A DNA stretch of 64,000 nucleotides. Source: Diplonema japonicum. Its lineage: Eukaryota > Protista > Euglenozoa: Diplonemea. A model generated the notes under the pieces. The model was not told the origin of the DNA. It worked only from the letters and a program-made list of their open reading frames with translations, and did no database searches. Of the stretch, positions 20,455 to 31,951 are shown one piece after another (within the stretch, counting starts at the first letter, position 1; the number at the start of each line of letters is the position of its first letter). The position numbers and the translations under genes were made by a program. The stretch is taken from contig OZ025650.1 in the NCBI GenBank assembly GCA_964019335.1, forward strand, positions 248,001-312,000, read 5' to 3'.

Positions 20455-23205
20455 TTACTGACCTGTCCAGTATGTCAATGCAGTAACGCACTGTTGACGC
20501 TGCTGCGGGGTGACGGATGAGGGGAAGAAATGAGCAATTACATTAGAAAGGTCTTCCTCATTGAGCTGGTCCAGCACATTGAGGCTCCCAAACTCATTCA
20601 CCATCCATACCGTGAAACGCGTCCAAGTACCTTCACCCTGCACACTGTCAAAGCACTTCTCCGCCAGCAGGTCTATTGGGTGCTTCTCTGGTGTTGTGTA
20701 ACACGACTGCATCCCGTCACCCTCCAGCGCCTGCGGAAGAGGCTTTGTAAGTGAAGACAGGTCTACAGAATGCTGCGGCATCGACGCCAACGGGTTGTTG
20801 TTGTTGTTGTTGTTAGTATGAACTGTGTTCCCCATTGTGCTGAGCAACGGCCCCACTCCAGAGTTCTTCAAAGAAACCCCTCCCTCCGAACCTTTCGGGG
20901 TGTCGTTGAAACCAACCTCAATCCCATCTGTATTCATCGCATCCTCTAATATAATCTCCTGCGGCTGATCCATGTCACCCATCTCACGGAAGGTAACCTC
21001 TTCCAGTTCCTGCTCTTGAGGTGGTTTCTTCTCTTCGTCAACCAGTTCTGTAAACGCTTTCTTCACCGCAACTTCAATTCTATCATCCTCCACACTGTCC
21101 TCTTTCTCTGTCATGAACACGTAGCGGTGTTTTGCCCCTGCCTCGTCGGATGCGAAGCCTGCGAAGTGGTTGACCCGCATCCTGTCGGTAAGGCATGGCA
21201 TGAGAAGCTTCAACCGTCGCTCGATGAGAAGCGTAGCACGTCCTTTGGAAAGACGCCACTCACGCTCGGAGACATCACGGACAGACGAGAAGGTGCAGGA
21301 GAAGATGGAAATAAGGAGGTTGAGAAGGATGACCAAGGCACAGATTGCAAACCATAAATTCAGGAAATAAGCCAGCCACGATGTGTTGGACTCTGCTGTT
21401 TTCGACCAACCTGGGAAGGTAGCTGTGTCGCCGAGGGCAGTCTTGACAAGCTTGTCCAACGAGTTTGAATAGGTGTTCGGCGCCTTTTCCAACACATGCA
21501 ACGCAGTGCCGAAGCCGACCAAGAATATCGAGAAGACCACCAAAAACGACGTGACGTCCGTGCGGACTGTTCGGAAGATGATGGTGGTGAGCATGCCCAG
21601 CTCGCGGGAGAAGGCCGTGAACTTCAGAGTCGAAATCCATATAAAAAGCAGCCCTATAGAGAGGAACCCTGTTATGGTACTGTCAGGGTTTTCATCGTTC
21701 TCAACCATCAACACCAAATGGATGATGGTCAGGACCTGCCCCACCCATGCAAAGAAGTCGTATTCCGACAATGGAACGTGCGTGTCGAGCCATGAAGTGA
21801 CGTTCGCTGTTGCCATCGCCATGAAGTTGTCTCTGTTTATCATTTTCTCCCACACCTCTGCCCCGTCCGGCTGTTTGGCCAGCCAAGGCGGCATCGTGCG
21901 AAGCTTCTTCGGCTTCGTTTTTTCAATGATCTTCATCTGCGATCGATATTCTGAGAACCCAGCGTAGCAGTCCACCAAAACCAGAATACACTGCAGCAAG
22001 CTGTCGGCGAATATAATCCATTCCAACAGCATTATCTGTGTGGTGTCGATGCTCGCACCTGTCTTCTTCGCCTCGTTGAGATCGTCTATCAGGTATCGGT
22101 ACTCAATAGCAAGGTACGAGATGACGAACAGCCTCCCAACGTGGAGGATAAATGCGGCGAGGAAAGCCTGCCGTCCGAACTGTTCCCACTTGGCGTCCAT
22201 GATACCCACGAGGTGGGGGTGTGTTGCGAGGGGGTAGATTCTTTTGCAGAGGACCATCGACAAGATAGAGATGTGTTGCGGGTTTGAAGGGTGCAAAGGG
22301 ATGCTGTCGAGCTGGTCCAATGGGACCGACGTACAGGAGACTCTCCCGAAGACCCATTCCACACGTGACATTCTGCTTAAAACGAAATCGAACATAGCAC
22401 CGTTATCAACGTGAGCAAGAACGGCAGCGAGGCCAAGGGGTGTGAGACCGGAAGCACCGAGTTCATTGAGAACCGTCATTCGATCAATGCTTAAGGTTGT
22501 TTCCAGTTTGACAAGAAGCCAGTCGAAGAGTGCAGTTCTTCTGTGAACGGCTGCTATGTGAAGTGCGGTGTTTCCGAATGAATCGCAATTTCGCAACAGT
22601 TTTGCGCCCCTTCCTCCTGCTACGAGAATCTCAGCGACCTCCAGCCCACCACATGCAACAGCGAAGGATAAAGGGTATTCCCCGAAGTAGCACGTTCCAG
22701 ATGGTTCGAAGAAGGTTCCGTACGCCCTGCTAGCAGGGTCAGCGTTTGCTTGAATGAGACGCTTGATAAGCTTTGTATCTCCAAATGCAACCGCAAGGTG
22801 GAGTGCGCTTTCACCATCGAAGAGCCCATAGGATCGGTGTAGTTCTTTGTAGTATACATTTATAACGTTCTTCTCGTGGTGGTTCAGGAGATATTCCACA
22901 ACAGCAGCTGCGCTTTTGTTCTGAAACACCCCACGATGGATGACCGCCCAGTGAAGCATGGCCGCGCCTGCGTTGTCCCTGCTGGGGTGCGTTGGGTCGA
23001 TCAATGAGGGTTTGCATTTTATTAGCTTTTTCAGTTTTTCTACAGCGGCGTCTTCGGAAGGCTCTCTGAAGATATCCATCACGCCCTCCTTCTCCCAGTG
23101 GATTACTTGTCTTCCCATTTGTGCAGCTACGAATTTGTTGCTATTTGCACTAGCTGAAAAGTTCCAGCACATGACGCTGGTGAATGTATCTGTTAGAAAG
23201 TCCAT
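20455..23205 (-). CDS. TRPV-like cation channel (ankyrin repeats + 6 TM)
   Basis: GESALHLAV, ADPASRAYGTFF, YFGEYPLSFAVA, DSFGNTALH, GLTPLGLAA, DAKWEQFG, six hydrophobic segments, LLNLLISIFSCTF and TRP-box-like EREWRL. Confidence 0.9.
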   Translation of the reverse strand: MDFLTDTFTSVMCWNFSASANSNKFVAAQMGRQVIHWEKEGVMDIFREPSEDAAVEKLKKLIKCKPSLIDPTHPSRDNAGAAMLHWAVIHRGVFQNKSAAAVVEYLLNHHEKNVINVYYKELHRSYGLFDGESALHLAVAFGDTKLIKRLIQANADPASRAYGTFFEPSGTCYFGEYPLSFAVACGGLEVAEILVAGGRGAKLLRNCDSFGNTALHIAAVHRRTALFDWLLVKLETTLSIDRMTVLNELGASGLTPLGLAAVLAHVDNGAMFDFVLSRMSRVEWVFGRVSCTSVPLDQLDSIPLHPSNPQHISILSMVLCKRIYPLATHPHLVGIMDAKWEQFGRQAFLAAFILHVGRLFVISYLAIEYRYLIDDLNEAKKTGASIDTTQIMLLEWIIFADSLLQCILVLVDCYAGFSEYRSQMKIIEKTKPKKLRTMPPWLAKQPDGAEVWEKMINRDNFMAMATANVTSWLDTHVPLSEYDFFAWVGQVLTIIHLVLMVENDENPDSTITGFLSIGLLFIWISTLKFTAFSRELGMLTTIIFRTVRTDVTSFLVVFSIFLVGFGTALHVLEKAPNTYSNSLDKLVKTALGDTATFPGWSKTAESNTSWLAYFLNLWFAICALVILLNLLISIFSCTFSSVRDVSEREWRLSKGRATLLIERRLKLLMPCLTDRMRVNHFAGFASDEAGAKHRYVFMTEKEDSVEDDRIEVAVKKAFTELVDEEKKPPQEQELEEVTFREMGDMDQPQEIILEDAMNTDGIEVGFNDTPKGSEGGVSLKNSGVGPLLSTMGNTVHTNNNNNNNPLASMPQHSVDLSSLTKPLPQALEGDGMQSCYTTPEKHPIDLLAEKCFDSVQGEGTWTRFTVWMVNEFGSLNVLDQLNEEDLSNVIAHFFPSSVTPQQRQQCVTALTYWTGQ

Positions 23206-24156: not shown

Positions 24157-25328
24157 TCATTCTCTCCTGTGTGTGTATGGTGTGTGCTTTCTTTGTCATA
24201 CTTCAAGAACCCGCGGTGTCCAGGCGATTTCTCAGCGTACTTAGCACAAGTCGAATCATCATAATCCTGAGGGATGAGGTCAAGCCCCTTAAGGACCTGC
24301 TTTGTTGCCATGTCCACATTCAAGCAGTAGAAGTGAAGGTGCTTCACACCACCGGCCAGCAAAGCCTTACAGACACCCACCATGTGCTCAATGCCGAAAG
24401 CCTTGAATTCCTCCTCAGCCTTCTTCTTGTCCTCGTCGCTGAGGTCGGCAGCAGGCTTCTTAGCCTCAATCTGCGCAAGCAGCTCGGGCTTAACGTACGT
24501 CTTGCAGAAACCAGTCATCTTCTTGAACCCCGCGTACGCCTGGATGGGGAGCAGACCGGGGAGGATCGGGACAGTGATTCCAGCTTCCCTGCAGTCCTAC
24601 GAAGTGGTTTATAATATAATAAAAAAAGGAATACCTTAACCCACTGAATGAACAGCTCAGCATCGTAGAACATTTGCGAGATGATGAAGTCGGCACCAGC
24701 CTCGACCTTCTTCTTCAGGTAGTCCATCTCCGCCTTGTACACGGCAGGGTCAACCTTGCCAGTCTGTGAATGTGTTTAAAAAAGAAAGGAAGCACACCTT
24801 AAGGTACTCATCGTAGTCGGCAATCTTGTCAGGGTGGCACTCGGGGTATCCCGCCACTGAGATGCAGAAGTAGTCCCCGTAGTGCGCCCTGATGTACTTG
24901 ACAAGGTCGAGCGCGCAGCTGAACCCGGTATCGGTGGCCTTCCACTCCTTCTCGCCGACGGGCGGGTCGCCACGGAGGGCGATGATGTTACGGATGCCGT
25001 TCTCCTTGGCGGCCTTCAATGCCGCCTCCACCTTGCCCTCCTCCATGTTCGTGCACGTCAGATGCATGTTCGCGATGTAGTTGTGCTTGTTCTGCGCGGT
25101 TTTGCACAACTCCATGGTGAGCTCGCTGGTGCTGCCGCCCGCACCCCAAGTGTAGTCTACGAACTCCGGGTTCATACCCCTCATCCTCCCTAGCCTCGCG
25201 TCCAAGTTCGCCACACCCGCGTCGGTCTTGGGAGGGAAAAACTCAAACGACCATGTCACGCCCTGCTCGTTGTCAAGAGGGGTGTTCCTCGCGCTGTCCA
25301 ACTGGTCCCTAAGCTTGGGGGTCGTCAT
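24157..25328 (-). CDS. MTHFR: Methylenetetrahydrofolate reductase, catalytic domain only; introns 24167-24201, 24597-24634, 24764-24797
   Basis: SFEFFPPKT, TWGAGG, HLTCTN, IIALRGDPP, VAGYPE, LKKKVEAGADFIISQMFYD, LHFYCLN. Spliced C-terminus ends GFLKRE*. Confidence 0.95.
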
Positions 25329-25453
25329 TTTGTATAAGTTCTTTTTTTTTCTTTTTCAAGTTCGTTACTTATAGTGTTTGAGTAAGATTTACGAAAGCTG
25401 CATAAAATAAAATCTTGAAGACTAAGGCCCTTTAGCCTGACACCATGATACAG

Positions 25454-27814
25454 TCACCAGTATTCGAAAACAGCTGTAGCGTCACCAGGCATGGATTGGA
25501 TAAGCAACACCAACTTGACTGGGATAGGGGCGGTGAAAATGTTGGATCCCACTGTTACTCTCCAAAGATGGAGGGCTGTTGAGGAGAAAGCATAAGTGAG
25601 ATTGAAGGTGCGGTTTAGTTTGGAGTTCCCTTGGAGCTGATCGCCTACAACGTACAGGGAGCGAGTAGCTAGATGCTTTCGGATCTGTCTGGTGCAGTGA
25701 GTGTGCGGGGTGGCCGCCAATATGACTGCCCTTGCTTCAGGAATAGCTTGGATGACCCTGAATGACGTTTTCGCCTCCCTCTCCACACGTGTTGCCTGCC
25801 GTTTGCTTGATGCACCGTCCCTGATGGCCTCCTTCAATGGTTCGTTGCTTACCCACTCGTCCCCAGCCTTGAATACCTTCTCCTCTCCCTCCAGCCACCC
25901 TGCTACCACTAAATACACCTTCTCGGCATCCCTCATCTCCTTTTCCATGTCATGCACCTTTGCTCCTTCCTTGCAGTACACCACTACGCCAGAGGTGTCC
26001 TTCTCCACACTGTGCACGAAATGCACACGCCGCACATTCCTCTGCCGCGCCACTTCGCACGCAGCGCTTGGCCTGTCCGCCGCCCTTGTCGTTGACGTCA
26101 AGTGCGTGACCATCCTGCTCGGTTTGCAGTACACAACCACGTCCTCAGTCTCCGCAAGGAACACAACTCCGTCGACGGAGGGCGGTGCCATCTCCACCTT
26201 TGCAAGCCTCTCGCCCATAAGGGAGAGCCGGCCCTTCGAGGTGTGCCCTGGATACCCACTTACCGTCATGACATCCCCACAGTTCATCTTCTTCACAGCA
26301 GCTCTACTACGTGGGCCCCACTCACCAACAGGGAGGACAACTTGAACTCTGTTCCCTGTCTTGCTTTGTAGTCCTATGAATGCCACGTTCCCTTGGCTCC
26401 TCACCGCTGTGACGTTGCCCCTTATCGCCACCAGCTCGTCGTTGATACGTGTGTCCCTCCCAATGCGCTCTTGGTCACAGTAACCCAGCTTTGCCCATGC
26501 TGCACGCACTTCGTCAACTCCCATAATCTCTTCTTCAGGGATGTCTTCGAAGTCCTGTTCACCGTATTTCCGAACGAGAGGCTTCAGCCTCCCCAAGCTA
26601 TGCAGGCCTTGCAAAGCCACCAGCATGCGGGGCAGCTTAGCCGTGGGCGTCCCTCGCAAACTGGCAGTCAAGCTCGTGACTTGCACCTGATCCAGCTCCG
26701 GGCAAGGAAGATTGATGAGGACCTGCAGCGAAAGATCCCGAGGGTGGGGTGTCGTGCACGGCACTGCGGGGTCATCCGGGAAGCAGGGAGCTTCATCGTT
26801 GATGGTCAGCACTAGCACCTCGTTCAAACGTGACGTCTGTGCTGCAAACTCTTCCTTCCAGTCGGGACGAACATCATTTGCATGAGCAGCCACGAGTGCT
26901 GTGAACACGTTGGACTCGTTGGGGGCTTTGCCTTCCAGTTCATGGCGCGGCATGAGGTCGAGAAGCGCCCTCGTCAGGGTGAGTGCTGTGTTGTTCGGGA
27001 ACACAAATGTGAGTTTCGTGTCCTTCTCTCGATATGCACTTTTTGAGGCCCAGATTGTGGCCACTGCTGCTAACTGGCAGACCTTGCTCTCAACGCTCTC
27101 TGTGTCGAGACGCACCCAGTAGTGGACAGAGCCCCTGTTCGGGACACATCGTACCATGCTCTCTAGATCCAGAGTGGGCTTCAGGCGCATGACGTCGCTG
27201 CTAGCAGCTGTTGTGAGTGCCTGGTAGACGGCATTGGGGTGGGCCGGTGCAGGGAGCTGCAAGAAGGCGTTTACGGAATGGATGCAGGCACTGGAGTGGA
27301 GAGCTACCGGTCCGAGGGAGACCCTCGTCATGTCACCGCACATTGTAGAAAAGAACTCCGATACCTTCGCAACCTGCTTAAGGAAGTCTTCGTGGGCACC
27401 GAATAGCCAGATGGACCGCTCCCACCCCATGGCCCTTTTTACGTCACCGTTGTCCTGTGGGACGAGCATAGGGGCGTCTTCGTGAAGTACGACCAACACG
27501 TCTGTCTCGCGGCACGTGAACACCCGACACGACCCTTCAAGGCACTCCTCAAGGTTCGCGTAAGTAACGGTCCCTTTCTGCAGCTCAGCCAATTCGTTAA
27601 GAATGCTCATTTCAGAAGGCGCGCTCCCTAGTTTCTCAACAAACTCGTCCCCGATCTTCATGAAAGAGTACTCTTTATCGTCAGCAGAAAGCATGATCAA
27701 CCAGACTTCTGTCCTCTCGTTCCCCCATAGCGCAGCCTCGATGCATCTGCTGAGTTCATCCAAACGGTGATGGGCTCTTGCCACCAGGAGGTAAACAAGG
27801 TTTAAGTCATGCAT
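25454..27814 (-). CDS. Fusion: two TrmY-like SPOUT domains + tRNA-synthetase-type OB fold + RluA-family pseudouridine synthase-like domain
   Basis: RLDELSRCIEAAL, VVLHEDA, FGAHED, VSLGPVALHSSACI (TrmY-like); second degenerate copy; VAIRGNVTAVRSQGNVAFIGL (OB); YCKPSRMVTH, VHSVEKDTSGV, AKTSFRV, TRQIRKHLA, VVGDQLQG, LHLWRV (RluA-like). Confidence 0.75.
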   Translation of the reverse strand: MHDLNLVYLLVARAHHRLDELSRCIEAALWGNERTEVWLIMLSADDKEYSFMKIGDEFVEKLGSAPSEMSILNELAELQKGTVTYANLEECLEGSCRVFTCRETDVLVVLHEDAPMLVPQDNGDVKRAMGWERSIWLFGAHEDFLKQVAKVSEFFSTMCGDMTRVSLGPVALHSSACIHSVNAFLQLPAPAHPNAVYQALTTAASSDVMRLKPTLDLESMVRCVPNRGSVHYWVRLDTESVESKVCQLAAVATIWASKSAYREKDTKLTFVFPNNTALTLTRALLDLMPRHELEGKAPNESNVFTALVAAHANDVRPDWKEEFAAQTSRLNEVLVLTINDEAPCFPDDPAVPCTTPHPRDLSLQVLINLPCPELDQVQVTSLTASLRGTPTAKLPRMLVALQGLHSLGRLKPLVRKYGEQDFEDIPEEEIMGVDEVRAAWAKLGYCDQERIGRDTRINDELVAIRGNVTAVRSQGNVAFIGLQSKTGNRVQVVLPVGEWGPRSRAAVKKMNCGDVMTVSGYPGHTSKGRLSLMGERLAKVEMAPPSVDGVVFLAETEDVVVYCKPSRMVTHLTSTTRAADRPSAACEVARQRNVRRVHFVHSVEKDTSGVVVYCKEGAKVHDMEKEMRDAEKVYLVVAGWLEGEEKVFKAGDEWVSNEPLKEAIRDGASSKRQATRVEREAKTSFRVIQAIPEARAVILAATPHTHCTRQIRKHLATRSLYVVGDQLQGNSKLNRTFNLTYAFSSTALHLWRVTVGSNIFTAPIPVKLVLLIQSMPGDATAVFEYW

Positions 27815-27907: not shown

Positions 27908-29862
27908 TTATTCGTCGGGGAGGGTGAGCCACGCTAGGCCAATCCAAAAGCCGACGAAAGCTAAGGCTTTGCTGCGGTGGAGCATCATGCGGAAGAAGCG
28001 TTCGAAAGCGGTCATTCGCTTAAATGCTACGACACGGTTGAGACCGTGGCACTGGGAATGGTCGTCCTGTCCGATCAGGTAGCGAGAGACACTGTCCACG
28101 TACACCTTCTTGAAGCCTTCGGAAAAGAAGGGTGGTGTGAACTGTTTGATGTTTCTACCCCACGTCACGCCCCACGTGTTCCAGGGCTGCCCACATGCAA
28201 TGGCATCAGGTGGGCCTATGAGTACGTACTCCAGCACACATTTGTTCTTCCTCCATTCCTTGGGCCAGTCCACCCCGTTGGGCATCATCTGGCAGATGAT
28301 GATCGCAGGATTGTACTTCTCCACAGCCTCCTTCTCCGAGATTGCCTCGTTCTCGAACGCCTGGAACTTCGCTCTCTCTGATCTGTTGAACTGCAGAAGG
28401 AAAGGGTTCATGATGGGTGTCACGTCTGTGGGGGCGGCCTTGATCCCTGCATTTTTGAAGGCCTCTGTTTGGTTGAGGAGCCAGGAGAGCCTGCCGGTAC
28501 CGGAACCAACTTCGAGGATGGGGACGTTGGTCGCTTTGTATGCTGCTGCACGGGAGACGAGGTAGTCGGCGAGAGACAAGATGTACTCCTCTGTGGGCAT
28601 GATGATGGTAGCAGTAGCTTTGCAGTGGAATTTTAAGGGATGGCACGACACGTGCGTGTCGAAGAAGTGAGGCGCGAAGGTCGGGTAGCTGATGTTGTAG
28701 TAGATGCCGTTGAAGTTCCTGTTGTAGTCGTCGACGCGGCGGGCGAGCTCGATGGCGTCGAGGGGCTTCATGGGCCGCCAATCAGCAGGCTCTGGTATGT
28801 CGAGCCGGAAGGCATCCACGACCTCTTGCCATGAGGGGAGGTACCGAGGCGACAGCATCTTCTCCGCCGCCATGGCATCGATTCTTCTTGTGTACACACA
28901 CACCTTGTACACCATCGCCAGCACATTGAACTGGTGCATGATCACTGCAGAGAAGTTCTTCGTCGTTGCCATCCACCTCTTCAGCTCTTCGTAGTCGGAG
29001 TACGTGTACCCAATGCTGAACATCTCTTCCAGATGGCTGTCCCACCAGTTGTACTCTGCATCCATGTTTGTCTTTTCCGGCTTCACCTCCGTGAACATGA
29101 TCTTGAACTTCGCAAGCTCATCCTCCCTCAGCACGAACTGTTCCTCTCGGTACACCACAGTGAAAGGGTTGAACTTATACCTGTGTGTGTGTTTGCATTT
29201 TGCCTCTCGCTTTAGATTACCCCCGTGGTGTGTTTCTTTGCCGGAATAGTGAAATGAAAGAGAAATTGAGGTATCTGGCACGCGATATGGCACTGAAACA
29301 TGCACGAACCTCAGCATGACCAGCAATGGAAATTTCGTGCTTTTTTCTTTTCTTCATAGGTTCAAAATGGAACACTTTTTCTTCTGGACACACGGGTTTA
29401 TATTCTGCTGCACTACAACGGGCGCTATTGACAGCGATGTCGCCATGCGCAGTCTCGTATTCGTCAAGGCGCCCGGTATTTGCGGCACTCGACAGGGTAC
29501 GTCCCATTTTGTTTGTTGAGTTTCCAGCGCTCTCCTTTTATAGACAATCTGGCACGCGATATGGCACTGAAACATGCACGGACCTCGGCATGACCAGCAA
29601 TGGAAATTTCGTGCTTTTTCCCACAGGATCAAAATAAATAGACCGCTCTTTTCTTTTGGAAAAATAATTGTCGCGATTTTAGTGGTGCCATGCAGTATGT
29701 GACAGTGGCCATCCTTGTGAAGCTTCGCCTCATCGGGTTTCCTCCCCCAAAAAAAAATGTTTATATATCTGGCACGCGATATGGCACTGAAACATGCACG
29801 GACCTCGGCATGACCAGCAATGGAAATTTCGTGCTTGGGGTAAAAATAAAAAGGACCGCCCT

Positions 29863-29910
<48 letters not shown>

Positions 29911-30321
29911 TAGTTTGTTCAAATCATACTTTGCCATGAAAGCCTTTCGTTTCTCTTTTGTGGTGTCGGCTCCTCGTGCGTCGTCGAAGTCGGCAATGAA
30001 CTCATCCCGCGAGACCCTGCACTTCTCGAGGAAGTTGTCGAGGTCGTCACAAAGCAGGGCGGAGATGAGAACAGGATCCAGCTGGTCGTAGGGAGAGAAG
30101 CTGTCTGCCAACAAGTGTTGCGTCTCCTTCTTGTTGATAAGCTGTCCCGCCGACGCCTTAAGCTCTTGAGGTTTTATAGGCCGCAAAGCACTCTGCTCTT
30201 TCATCATCACCTGTGTCTCGTCCCCTTGAGCATCCTTCCCCTGTGCCAGATCCCTTCCCAAAGGAGACTTCCATCCCCTCACAGCGGTCCTGCTGAACCA
30301 CCTTCTTGCTACTTTTTGCAT
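27908..30321 (-). CDS. Putative mitochondrial SAM-dependent methyltransferase-like protein; single 749-nt intron 29181-29929
   Basis: Presequence-like MQKVARRWFSRTAVRGW. Donor AA|GTATGA and acceptor CACAG|G restore FMAK|YKFNPF. Motif I ILEVGSGTGRL; C-terminal TM. Confidence 0.75.
29271..29342 (-). ncRNA. Putative single-hairpin AGA-box (H/ACA-like) guide RNA, family A copy 1
   Basis: Minus strand: GCACG-pocket-CATTG..CATGC loop GCATG..CAGTG-pocket-CGTGC-c-AGA+3 nt, with 14 nt from upper stem to AGA. One of three near-identical intronic copies. Confidence 0.65.
29401..29488 (-). ncRNA. Putative single-hairpin AGA-box guide RNA, family C
   Basis: Minus strand stems CGGGCGC/GCGCCCG and TTGAC/GTCAA, lower stem GCCGCA/TGCAGC (1 mismatch), then AGA+ata. 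Lies between family A copies. Confidence 0.5.
29545..29616 (-). ncRNA. Putative AGA-box guide RNA, family A copy 2
   Basis: Same fold as copy 1. The two substitutions versus copy 1 fall in the apical loop. Confidence 0.65.
29666..29729 (-). ncRNA. Putative single-hairpin ACA-box guide RNA, family B copy 1
   Basis: Minus strand GCGA...GGCCA..TGGC...TCGC-g-ACA+3 nt. Homologous to 37381-37446 in the dynamin intron. Confidence 0.5.
29765..29836 (-). ncRNA. Putative AGA-box guide RNA, family A copy 3
   Basis: Identical to copy 2 over ~70 nt; ends AGA-tat. Confidence 0.65.
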
Positions 30322-30763
30322 GCGTTGCAAATATATATATATATATTTTTTTTTTAATGGCCCTGTTGTAGGGAAAATTAAATTAAAAAAAAAAATGGAA
30401 CACCGACTTCACATCAAAAATGAAAGAAAAAGGAGAGAAAAAAAGGAAAAGGAACTATTTTCTTTTAAGGTATGCGTAGTTGCGCTCACCGGCCTCCTCG
30501 CGCTCAGTCCTCGTTCTGGGGGCTTTTGGCGGGTGCCGACAGCGGTTGTCAGACTGCGTGGCAGTCTCGTCGGGGTCGTCGACGGGAATCTCTCTCGAAA
30601 GAGAAAAAGAAAAAAAAAGAGAGGAATAAATAGAAACCAAAGACCCGGGTAAAAACCCAAAAAAAAAAAAAAAAAAAAAAGAGAAAAGTTGGTGTTACAT
30701 AACTTTTTTATAAAAAAAAGTTGCATTTCTTTGGGAAGGGGGGGGATGCGGGGGTGCGCTTTT

Positions 30764-31951
30764 TCACGATGCTTGTCTCCTCTCCTGGATGAGATGGAAA
30801 TTTCTCCAGTGGTTGTGGCATTCCTTGATGATGTTCTGCGCGTACTCCCGACCGAAGTATTCACCGTCCATCGCGAATTTGTTTTGCGGCTTCCCGTGAC
30901 AGATTTTGTAATCGCGAAGCCACGTTCTGATGCACTCCAGCGCACCAGGCATATAACGGGTAACATCAGGTATATCGTCCATGAAGAGCGCAAGGGGATC
31001 ACCAGTAGACACTGCGATCACCTTCCAATCCATTTCACCATCATCAATCATGCCAAGGACACCAAGAACTTTGATGGGTGTAACGCTTCCTGTCGCAAGC
31101 TGTTGGGAACCGATCTCAATGATGTCGATGGGATCGTTGTCACCCTTGTATTCTTTGATGCCGTCTTCCTCTTCAAACTGGAAGCTGTGTTCGGTAGACT
31201 CCCACGTCTGCGGCAGCGCACCATAGTTGAACAGCATATCACCGTGTTTGTAAAACCGCAAGGCACCATTGCTCACATCTTGCTTCACTGGGTTGTACGG
31301 CTCGATGGTAGCTATCTCAAACTTTGCACGTGTCCACTTTGGTATCTCGCAGATAAAATTGTACTTATTCAATGGGGCTCCTTGCGGTTGGGTTCGAATC
31401 ACGTCCTTGATGTATAATGGTATATCGTGCCAGGGGGAGATTTTGCGCTTTGTTCCGGTTTTCAAGCTTTTGAGATAGAACCACACACGGTACTCGGGGG
31501 TGAACTTTTCATTGTCCTCCTCGACAATGAGCTGCATTTGTTCAAACGGCTCGTTGAACCGTGCTGAAAACGTCTTGAAGTTCTCCTTTGTTTTCTCAAT
31601 AACGTGGACTTCGGTGTTCCACACCTTCCAAAACACCTCGAAGTCGGGCGGGCCGTTTTTGAAGAGTATCGTCGTGACATTGGCAAGCTCGTCTGCAGTG
31701 AGGACACCCTCGCCTGCCTTTTCAAACATCCTCTCGACGTCCTCCTTGTTCAGTGTACCCTTGTTGTTGCAATCGATGCTTTCGAACAGCCTTCGCATGA
31801 TTTTCTTCTCCGCCACTTGCGTGTCTTCATCTTTATCATACGCAAGGTGCAACAGATCATTCGACGCTGTCTCGGGTATGCAGCTGTCCCTGTGGTTCTC
31901 CAGCTTGAAGCTCATGCCTTTTGTCAGGCTCATACCGCTTCCGCGTTTCAT
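30764..31951 (-). CDS. EF-hand-containing soluble inorganic pyrophosphatase (VSP1/acidocalcisomal-like)
   Basis: EF-hand DCNNKGTLNKED; family I PPase motifs ISPWHDIPL, CEIPKWTRAKFE, NYGALPQTWE, GDNDPIDIIEIG, MIDDGEMDWKVI. The true start may lie in an upstream exon. Confidence 0.9.
   Translation of the reverse strand: MKRGSGMSLTKGMSFKLENHRDSCIPETASNDLLHLAYDKDEDTQVAEKKIMRRLFESIDCNNKGTLNKEDVERMFEKAGEGVLTADELANVTTILFKNGPPDFEVFWKVWNTEVHVIEKTKENFKTFSARFNEPFEQMQLIVEEDNEKFTPEYRVWFYLKSLKTGTKRKISPWHDIPLYIKDVIRTQPQGAPLNKYNFICEIPKWTRAKFEIATIEPYNPVKQDVSNGALRFYKHGDMLFNYGALPQTWESTEHSFQFEEEDGIKEYKGDNDPIDIIEIGSQQLATGSVTPIKVLGVLGMIDDGEMDWKVIAVSTGDPLALFMDDIPDVTRYMPGALECIRTWLRDYKICHGKPQNKFAMDGEYFGREYAQNIIKECHNHWRNFHLIQERRQAS

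Follow-up and report, generated by a model that had tools for sequence, protein, structure and literature searches.

A TrmY–TrmY–OB–RluA fusion in Diplonema japonicum as a candidate single-chain pseudouridine N1-methyltransferase

In archaea, the methyltransferase TrmY targets pseudouridine 54 of transfer RNA (tRNA), its ancestral site. The enzyme is described as archaeal in reviews (PMC9508554, PMC7912444, PMC7694415), and N1-methylpseudouridine (m1-pseudouridine) has been described for archaeal tRNA and as the product of Nep1 in ribosomal RNA (rRNA) (PMC7694415). Substrate recognition by TrmY is described as incompletely characterized (PMC9508554), and the TrmY Mj1640 methylates pseudouridine promiscuously, with little structural requirement, in vitro and in human cells (PMC13171889). 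In this study, a 64,000-nucleotide stretch of the Diplonema japonicum contig OZ025650.1 (assembly GCA_964019335.1, positions 248,001 to 312,000; hereafter the window, from whose first letter all coordinates are counted) was analyzed around a gene at 25454..27814. Its product is a four-domain protein comprising a TrmY-like domain (D1), a degenerate TrmY-like domain (D2), a LysRS-type OB fold and an RluA-family domain. This layout, proposed in an earlier note on the same DNA, was upheld by Pfam and NCBIfam matches, by comparison of the D2 profile with shuffled controls and by matches of a structure model. The features of the gene are as follows.

25454..27814, minus strand: single open reading frame (27814 to 25454) of 786 residues with no internal stops, encoding the TrmY(D1)-TrmY(D2)-OB-RluA-like fusion
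27245..27814, minus strand: D1, TrmY-type SPOUT domain, predicted S-adenosylmethionine (SAM)-binding and catalytic half
27746..27766, minus strand: loop R17-x-D19-E20-x-x-R23, corresponding to TrmY GRLD..RC
27281..27487, minus strand: SAM-binding knot motifs LHED (27476-27487), GAHEDF (27383-27400) and SLGPVALHSSACI (27281-27319), aligned to the TrmY knot
27152..27244, minus strand: linker between D1 and D2, of low model confidence
26579..27151, minus strand: D2 (residues 222-412), degenerate copy of TrmY, predicted to be the half that recognizes RNA and lacks a SAM site
26180..26542, minus strand: LysRS/AspRS-type anticodon-binding OB fold (residues ~456-538)
25457..26173, minus strand: RluA-family pseudouridine synthase fold (residues ~552-754), predicted dead RNA-binding module
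26003..26014, minus strand: HSVE in place of HRLD

The gene is transcribed in related strains and is under purifying selection. DNA runs X3 and X6 are identical to the window sequence, which may itself derive from X3, and contigs of run X1 span 25443-27388 in four pieces at 95-99% identity with no joint within the reading frame, leaving out 27389-27814. Run X1 was recognized as RNA because a spliced intron and a spliced-leader end are seen in it on the neighbouring MTHFR gene; the leader is presumably of the euglenozoan type. Among the differences listed for X1 in the frame, 16 are synonymous and five non-synonymous (expected synonymous share 24%, p 8e-7; 27 further rows stand outside the count). 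The open frame and the synonymous bias rule out a pseudogene. An AlphaFold2 model built from eight sequences reached a predicted local distance difference test (pLDDT) score of 82 and a predicted template-modelling score of 0.77, which fit a compact multi-domain unit; a single-sequence prediction had a pLDDT of 35, and in the linker of the eight-sequence model pLDDT is below 50 at residues 189-210.

Eight proteins were found in a first search, and an exhaustive search with residues 1-443 gave 12 at E<=0.001. Named members come from Diplonema papillatum, Lacrimia, Rhynchopus humris, Sulcionema, Namystynia, a record with the prefix Hpha and the dinoflagellate Effrenium voratum. The family alignment holds 13 rows, which stand for 12 clusters because P0013 and P0016 fall into a single one, and 11 of the rows extend into the RluA domain.

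Residues 16-183 match the Pfam TrmY family PF04013 (E 4.7e-6; 26.9 bits, exceeding the cut-off of 25.5), residues 16-185 match the NCBIfam TrmY model NF002560 (E 1.6e-4) and a D1 profile aligned to 51 archaeal TrmY proteins with an hhalign probability of 98.8% (E 6.5e-17), in keeping with the SPOUT/TrmY assignment that the earlier note had given to the N-terminal part. In the model, residues 2-193 superpose on AF1056 (2qmm; Z 14.4, root-mean-square deviation 3.0, 164 residues aligned) and MJ1640 (3ai9; Z 13.7, deviation 3.3, 169 aligned), followed by 2qwv (Z 13.1), EMG1 (Z 11.6) and Nep1 (Z 10.3); an ESM Atlas search with D1 returned TrmY clusters at 0.88-0.90. Of the SPOUT families that came up, TrmY is the one nearest to D1. 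Its loop residues R17, D19, E20 and R23 are invariant in all 13 rows, and RxD is found in 51/51 single-copy archaeal TrmY. The knot at 27281-27319, noted before as intact-looking, is so throughout the family: positions L110, E112, G139, H141, E142, D143, L167, G168, P169, L172 and S175 are invariant in 13/13 rows, and all SAM-side motifs are unchanged despite a mean identity of ~35%. The Arg of the TrmY motif PDER is missing from D1 in every row, the Glu alone being kept (13/13), and SHxxR is not conserved.

The second TrmY copy is the weakest part of the domain description. D2 gave no match in Pfam or the other domain libraries and no usable match in the ESM Atlas. Profile comparison with TrmY by hhalign gave P 2.5e-4 to 5e-4 with the alignment in register; the score of 32.6 was reached by none of 40 block-shuffled controls (13.9 +/- 2.0, maximum 19.0), and the score against D1 (27.5) likewise exceeded all 40 (13.4 +/- 2.1). 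The shuffle control rules out an unrelated domain. In addition, the order of strands and helices in the model is that of D1, barring two helices in the knot half, and the degenerate second copy suspected earlier is upheld. RxD and the knot motifs are absent from D2 in the 13-row alignment. What remains of TrmY is S257, D265 (12/13), P298 and E300 (10/13); S257, Y261, T266, R282 and P298 are invariant, and the homologue P0014 retains a canonical SHG. Over the two copies, invariant positions number 17/183 in D1 and 10/181 in D2.

The relation between the copies can be read against the Nep1–RNA structure, in which the target base is held between two monomers: the monomer that provides SAM gives Arg88, Gln94 and Ser233, and the other gives Asp101 and a helix carrying Arg129/132/136 (PMC3064781). 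One sentence of that paper places Asp90 in monomer A, although it is the neighbour of Arg88. Residues of TrmY were mapped onto Nep1 by eye rather than by computed alignment (GRLD..RC and the knot; SHxxR and PDER), and by our reading the D1 loop R17-x-D19 would be equivalent to Nep1 Arg88/Asp90. On this mapping, D1 appears to have the SAM-side set and to have lost the RNA-side set, and D2 appears to be its mirror image. Since the pattern fits the two-protomer site of Nep1, one composite D1/D2 active site is likely. Furthermore, a D1 homodimer would be without an RNA side, and pairing of D1 with D2 is therefore the economical reading. D1 and D2 would thus pack as a pseudo-dimer with one composite site; the single-chain arrangement suggested in the earlier note gains independent support from this complementary retention of motifs. 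A two-chain prediction of D1 with D2 and SAM, made without alignments, scored 0.14 (mark 0.34), which decides neither for nor against the pairing.

A similar partition was found in Promethearchaeota (Asgard archaea), where PF04013 occurs in 90 of 121 genomes, 58 of which have at least two matches. Thermoplasmatota have the family in 76/101 genomes, mostly with one match each, and in the phylum of genome G014 it occurs in 48/61, always once. The Asgard sample comprised 59 proteins (30 best matches, 20 second matches and the rest from an earlier search); after viewing, three proteins with all motifs were set apart, leaving 31 of type A and 25 of type B. Type A has RxD (30/31) and the knot motifs (30-31/31), lacks the PDER Arg (0/31) and keeps the Glu (30/31). 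Type B is without RxD (0/25) and nearly without the knot motifs (1-4/25), and has SxxxR (25/25) and the PDER Arg (24/25). The 51 other, single-copy archaeal TrmY proteins carry both sets (46-51/51 each; PDER Arg 46/51). The division into A and B therefore marks the two motif sets as separable half-sites, and predicts that the Asgard pair would be an obligate heterodimer. The two genes are adjacent in two genomes (L211, G056:C17:111500-113200; L212, G075:C162:17600-19300). Further split loci were noted (L127-L165, L213-L230).

D1 resembles type A even in keeping just the Glu of PDER. However, for both D1 and D2 the scores are higher with unsplit TrmY than with type A or type B. In a quick tree of a 74-row subsample, from which D2 and P0016 were left out, D1 forms a single clade, set on a long stem and placed close to TrmY of halobacteria and of some Thermoplasmatota (Shimodaira–Hasegawa-like approximate likelihood-ratio support 89). 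A clade of D1 with type A is not in the best tree and is not rejected (approximately unbiased test, p 0.237), so that descent of D1 from Asgard type A is neither supported nor rejected. Vibrionaceae TrmY (Vibrio and Photobacterium, L231-L235), in which RxD, RC, SxxxR and PDER are absent in 5/5 and other residues are conserved instead, was ruled out as the source since nearly all of its motifs deviate; its activity may differ from its label. In Thermoplasmatota, some of the TrmY matches are part of open frames as long as 420-1189 residues (L169, L189, G163:C20:35108-35698) and are possibly other TrmY fusions.

The OB domain matches PF01336 at residues 462-536 (E 1.7e-4, under the Pfam cut-off), and in the model it superposes on LysRS anticodon domains with Z 13-14, which bears out the anticodon-binding type proposed earlier and places it with the class IIb synthetases. 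In human LysRS, R136, F144 and Q155 together with E195 read U35 and U36 (PMC11643047). Alignments to bacterial LysRS place R472, F479 and Q491 on this triad, and R529 replaces the Glu; in the closest full-length rows (P0001-P0008) the Arg is kept in 7/8, the Phe and the Gln in 8/8 and R529 in 8/8. Retention of the Arg/Phe/Gln triad points to tRNA, and would favour tRNAs with U35. The change of Glu to R529 perhaps means that the third anticodon base is other than U, which is speculation.

The C-terminal part matches PF00849 at residues 558-716 (E 1e-15), and in the model it superposes on RluC (Z 22.1, deviation 3.1, 210 residues aligned) and RluA (Z 20.3). As had been noticed, the catalytic HRLD reads HSVE: in alignments with RluC and RluD, HSVEKDTSG occupies the place of their HRLD motif. 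The catalytic position is Glu in 8/11 rows, Gly in 2/11, Lys in 1/11 and Asp in none, and Arg is absent from the base-flipping position in all 11; the loss of both is therefore a family trait, which strengthens the claim that the synthase domain is probably inactive. A sequencing error or private mutation at HSVE is ruled out, as the motif is identical in runs X3 and X6 and the change is family-wide; no change is listed there in the related strains of runs X1 and X2. The active-site Tyr634 is Tyr in 7/11 rows and Phe or Trp in four, and the salt-bridge Arg, R712, is kept in nearly all. Asp-to-Glu mutants of TruA are inactive. According to 10.1101/2023.02.23.529727, both the Asp and the Arg of HRLD are required, and RluA domains that are dead or dispensable have precedents in RPUSD3 and mt-LAF3; the passages of PMC3973310 consulted hold nothing on a catalytic Asp-to-Glu change. 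The D. papillatum fusion protein (KAJ9457786.1) is labelled 'tRNA pseudouridine synthase C' in GenBank, likely the wrong activity. A mitochondrial RluA-family protein of D. papillatum, DIPPA_03194, also has Glu for the catalytic Asp in a matching sequence context (PMC12699882 supplement), and is possibly a relative or the source of the dead domain.

Beyond the family members, none of 11 and 25 pattern matches passed tblastn as a prokaryotic or metagenomic fusion relative, and no relative of 30-202 residues was found among 784 candidates; both searches were word-limited. A profile search for relatives was insensitive, as known members were missed. Eukaryotic TrmY-like genes are already on record as an automatic label: the supplement of the D. 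papillatum genome paper (PMC10161547) gives an orthogroup, OG0008180, that is labelled trmY by KEGG, is present in Euglena, Emiliania and three diplonemids and has been lost from D. papillatum. A further orthogroup in that table, OG0011039, is named 'tRNA pseudouridine synthase C' and comprises four diplonemids and one member each in Leishmania and Leptomonas; it is probably the fusion family, and the exhaustive search yielded no trypanosomatid among its 12 proteins. The D. papillatum fusion protein was not found among the mitoproteome supplement entries searched.

Taken together, we see about an even chance that the fusion is a SAM-dependent, one-site N1-pseudouridine methyltransferase for tRNA; D1–D2 packing, SAM binding, the chemistry and the tRNA substrate are steps that we infer. 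In this scheme, SAM binding and the catalytic Arg and Asp would fall to D1, and D2 would take the place of the other protomer in the ancestral homodimer and form the RNA-facing wall of the cleft. A tRNA anticodon with U35 would be held by the OB fold and a stem-loop by the dead RluA fold acting as a clamp; the pseudouridine would come from a different enzyme acting earlier. Because Mj1640 is promiscuous, extra modules that confer specificity would be sensible: the accessory domains would restrict this chemistry to a subset of tRNAs. Position 54, as the ancestral site, is the single most likely target, and an anticodon-arm pseudouridine is about as plausible. The fuller proposal, that a eukaryotic tRNA m1-pseudouridine writer selects its tRNAs via a captured synthetase domain, uses a dead synthase as clamp or pseudouridine reader and follows the design of a fused heterodimeric Asgard TrmY-A/TrmY-B, inherited or reinvented, is put forward tentatively and is rather improbable as a whole.

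Several observations weigh against the tRNA methyltransferase. The D1 score lies far under the TrmY equivalog cut-off (21.2 against 183 bits). In D2, the PDER Arg is absent in 13/13 rows (Lys in four), the SHxxR Arg is not conserved family-wide and K258, Y261, R282 and R396 are new invariant or near-invariant residues; the RNA-reading surface has therefore changed, and the loss of the PDER Arg speaks against position 54 in particular. The anticodon triad is less clear in the distant dinoflagellate-side rows P0012, P0014 and P0016, and the Glu in 8/11 rows with R712 kept indicates that the RluA pocket is not drifting freely. OG0008180 could do the position-54 job, though D. papillatum lacks it. 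Literature searches, with subscription papers outside their scope, turned up no report of m1-pseudouridine in the tRNA of these protists; nor did they yield a description of the fusion or of the split Asgard TrmY. The rewired RNA-side motifs of D2 would suit a possible, if doubtful, alternative, namely an active one-site SPOUT methyltransferase with a target other than tRNA pseudouridine: either another base or a pseudouridine, possibly introduced by H/ACA guides, in rRNA, small nuclear RNA or spliced-leader RNA. The OB and RluA folds would then recognize a hairpin loop rich in U. Both rRNA and tRNA are substrates of RluA-family domains (the best structural match here is RluC), the sister family Nep1 targets rRNA and a second TrmY-like orthogroup, OG0008180, is listed for diplonemids. 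However, the OB domain matches class IIb anticodon domains specifically, with the triad kept, and D1 is nearer to TrmY (Z 13-14) than to Nep1/EMG1 (Z 10-12).

Half of the four domains being pseudo-enzymes already, a further alternative is an RNA chaperone or assembly factor that has no catalytic activity or can do without it, as with mt-LAF3 or RPUSD3; its SAM binding would be structural. RluA-family proteins that are dead or dispensable serve as scaffolds in euglenozoans (10.1101/2023.02.23.529727), and SAM-site mutants of Nep1 retain the essential role (PMC3064781). We regard this as unlikely, given that D1 has more invariant positions than D2, catalytic-loop Arg and Asp included, and that the D. 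papillatum protein is not among the mitochondrial listings searched. A bifunctional enzyme, in which the RluA domain makes pseudouridine with Glu and the TrmY pair then methylates it in one chain, would be a logical fusion of both activities, and the frequent Glu, Tyr634 and R712 described above would be in line with it. It is nevertheless very improbable, as three of the 11 rows have Gly or Lys, the base-flipping Arg is absent from all, Tyr has become Phe or Trp in four and catalysis is said to need the Asp and the Arg of HRLD (10.1101/2023.02.23.529727). If the tRNA methyltransferase is correct, these abundant marine protists would have a dedicated writer, which would amount to a natural eukaryotic m1-pseudouridine pathway for tRNA or small RNA, and D. 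papillatum is genetically tractable. The partitions between D1 and D2 and between Asgard types A and B sort TrmY residues into SAM-side and RNA-side sets, and users of Mj1640 who map pseudouridine could be interested in a single-chain pseudouridine N1-methyltransferase that has one site and RNA-binding modules open to exchange.

The neighbouring features are as follows.

29177-29925: spliced intron of the gene upstream of the fusion (X1 record)
29273-29342, 29547-29616 and 29767-29836, minus strand: three near-identical hairpins of ~70 nucleotides ending in AGA, inside this intron
24177-25328, minus strand: MTHFR catalytic-domain gene with a 34-nucleotide GT-AG intron at 24764-24797, seen in X1 and X2
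30764-31951, minus strand: inorganic pyrophosphatase with an N-terminal EF-hand region (Pfam)
20455-23205, minus strand: ankyrin-repeat TRP-like cation channel (Pfam)

The intron hairpins look like candidate single-hairpin H/ACA guides; their folding z of -1.07 is not remarkable, and Rfam and ARAGORN gave no matches in the window, hairpins included. The earlier note had pointed out that the fusion lies next to this guide-RNA host gene and allowed for coincidence. The adjacency is real, but nothing beyond it speaks for a functional link: a full coding exon lies between the hairpins and the fusion gene, and the proximity to a host gene of small-nucleolar-RNA-like elements is probably incidental. 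Short elements at 29659-29704 and ~30440-30590, matched by many unrelated transcript contigs (X1 summed depth 262 in one bin), are dispersed repeats in introns or untranslated regions. The spliced-leader acceptor of the MTHFR gene is at 25368, 86 nucleotides past the fusion stop codon.

Among known systems, TrmY (COG1901, PF04013; MJ1640, AF1056) shares with D1 the fold (Z 13-14), the RxD..RC loop and the three knot motifs, and with D2 the remnants S..D and PxE. It is a homodimer of ~200-residue chains with two equivalent sites, whereas the fusion has two diverged copies in one chain with one predicted site, no PDER Arg in either copy, two extra RNA-binding domains and a eukaryotic host. The split Asgard TrmY shows the same complementary SAM-side/RNA-side partition between two copies; it differs in that each copy has a gene of its own, OB and RluA domains are absent and type B keeps the PDER Arg. 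Nep1/EMG1 belongs to the same class of chemistry, likewise has a composite active site and matches D1 with Z 10-12; in contrast to the fusion, which has no EMG1 Pfam match at E<=1, it is universal in eukaryotes, homodimeric and directed at 18S rRNA. The RluA/RluC/RluD/TruC, RPUSD3 and mt-LAF3 proteins share the fold of the C-terminal domain (Z 19-22) and the motifs KP, xxDxSG, QIRxH, GD and LH; in the fusion, however, the catalytic Asp and the flipping Arg are absent family-wide and a methyltransferase is joined on. The class IIb LysRS anticodon domain has the same OB fold with the Arg/Phe/Gln triad; the Glu of its G-E-L-S is Arg in 8/8 of rows P0001-P0008, and the fusion has no synthetase domain. 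The TrmD-COG4752 tandem fusions of Deltaproteobacteria (PMC1829167) also carry two SPOUT domains per polypeptide, but these join two different families, whereas here one family is duplicated into complementary half-sites. The protein lies outside strict TrmY, by its RNA-side motif and equivalog score, and outside active RluA, and is a conserved, apparently undescribed architecture built from known parts.

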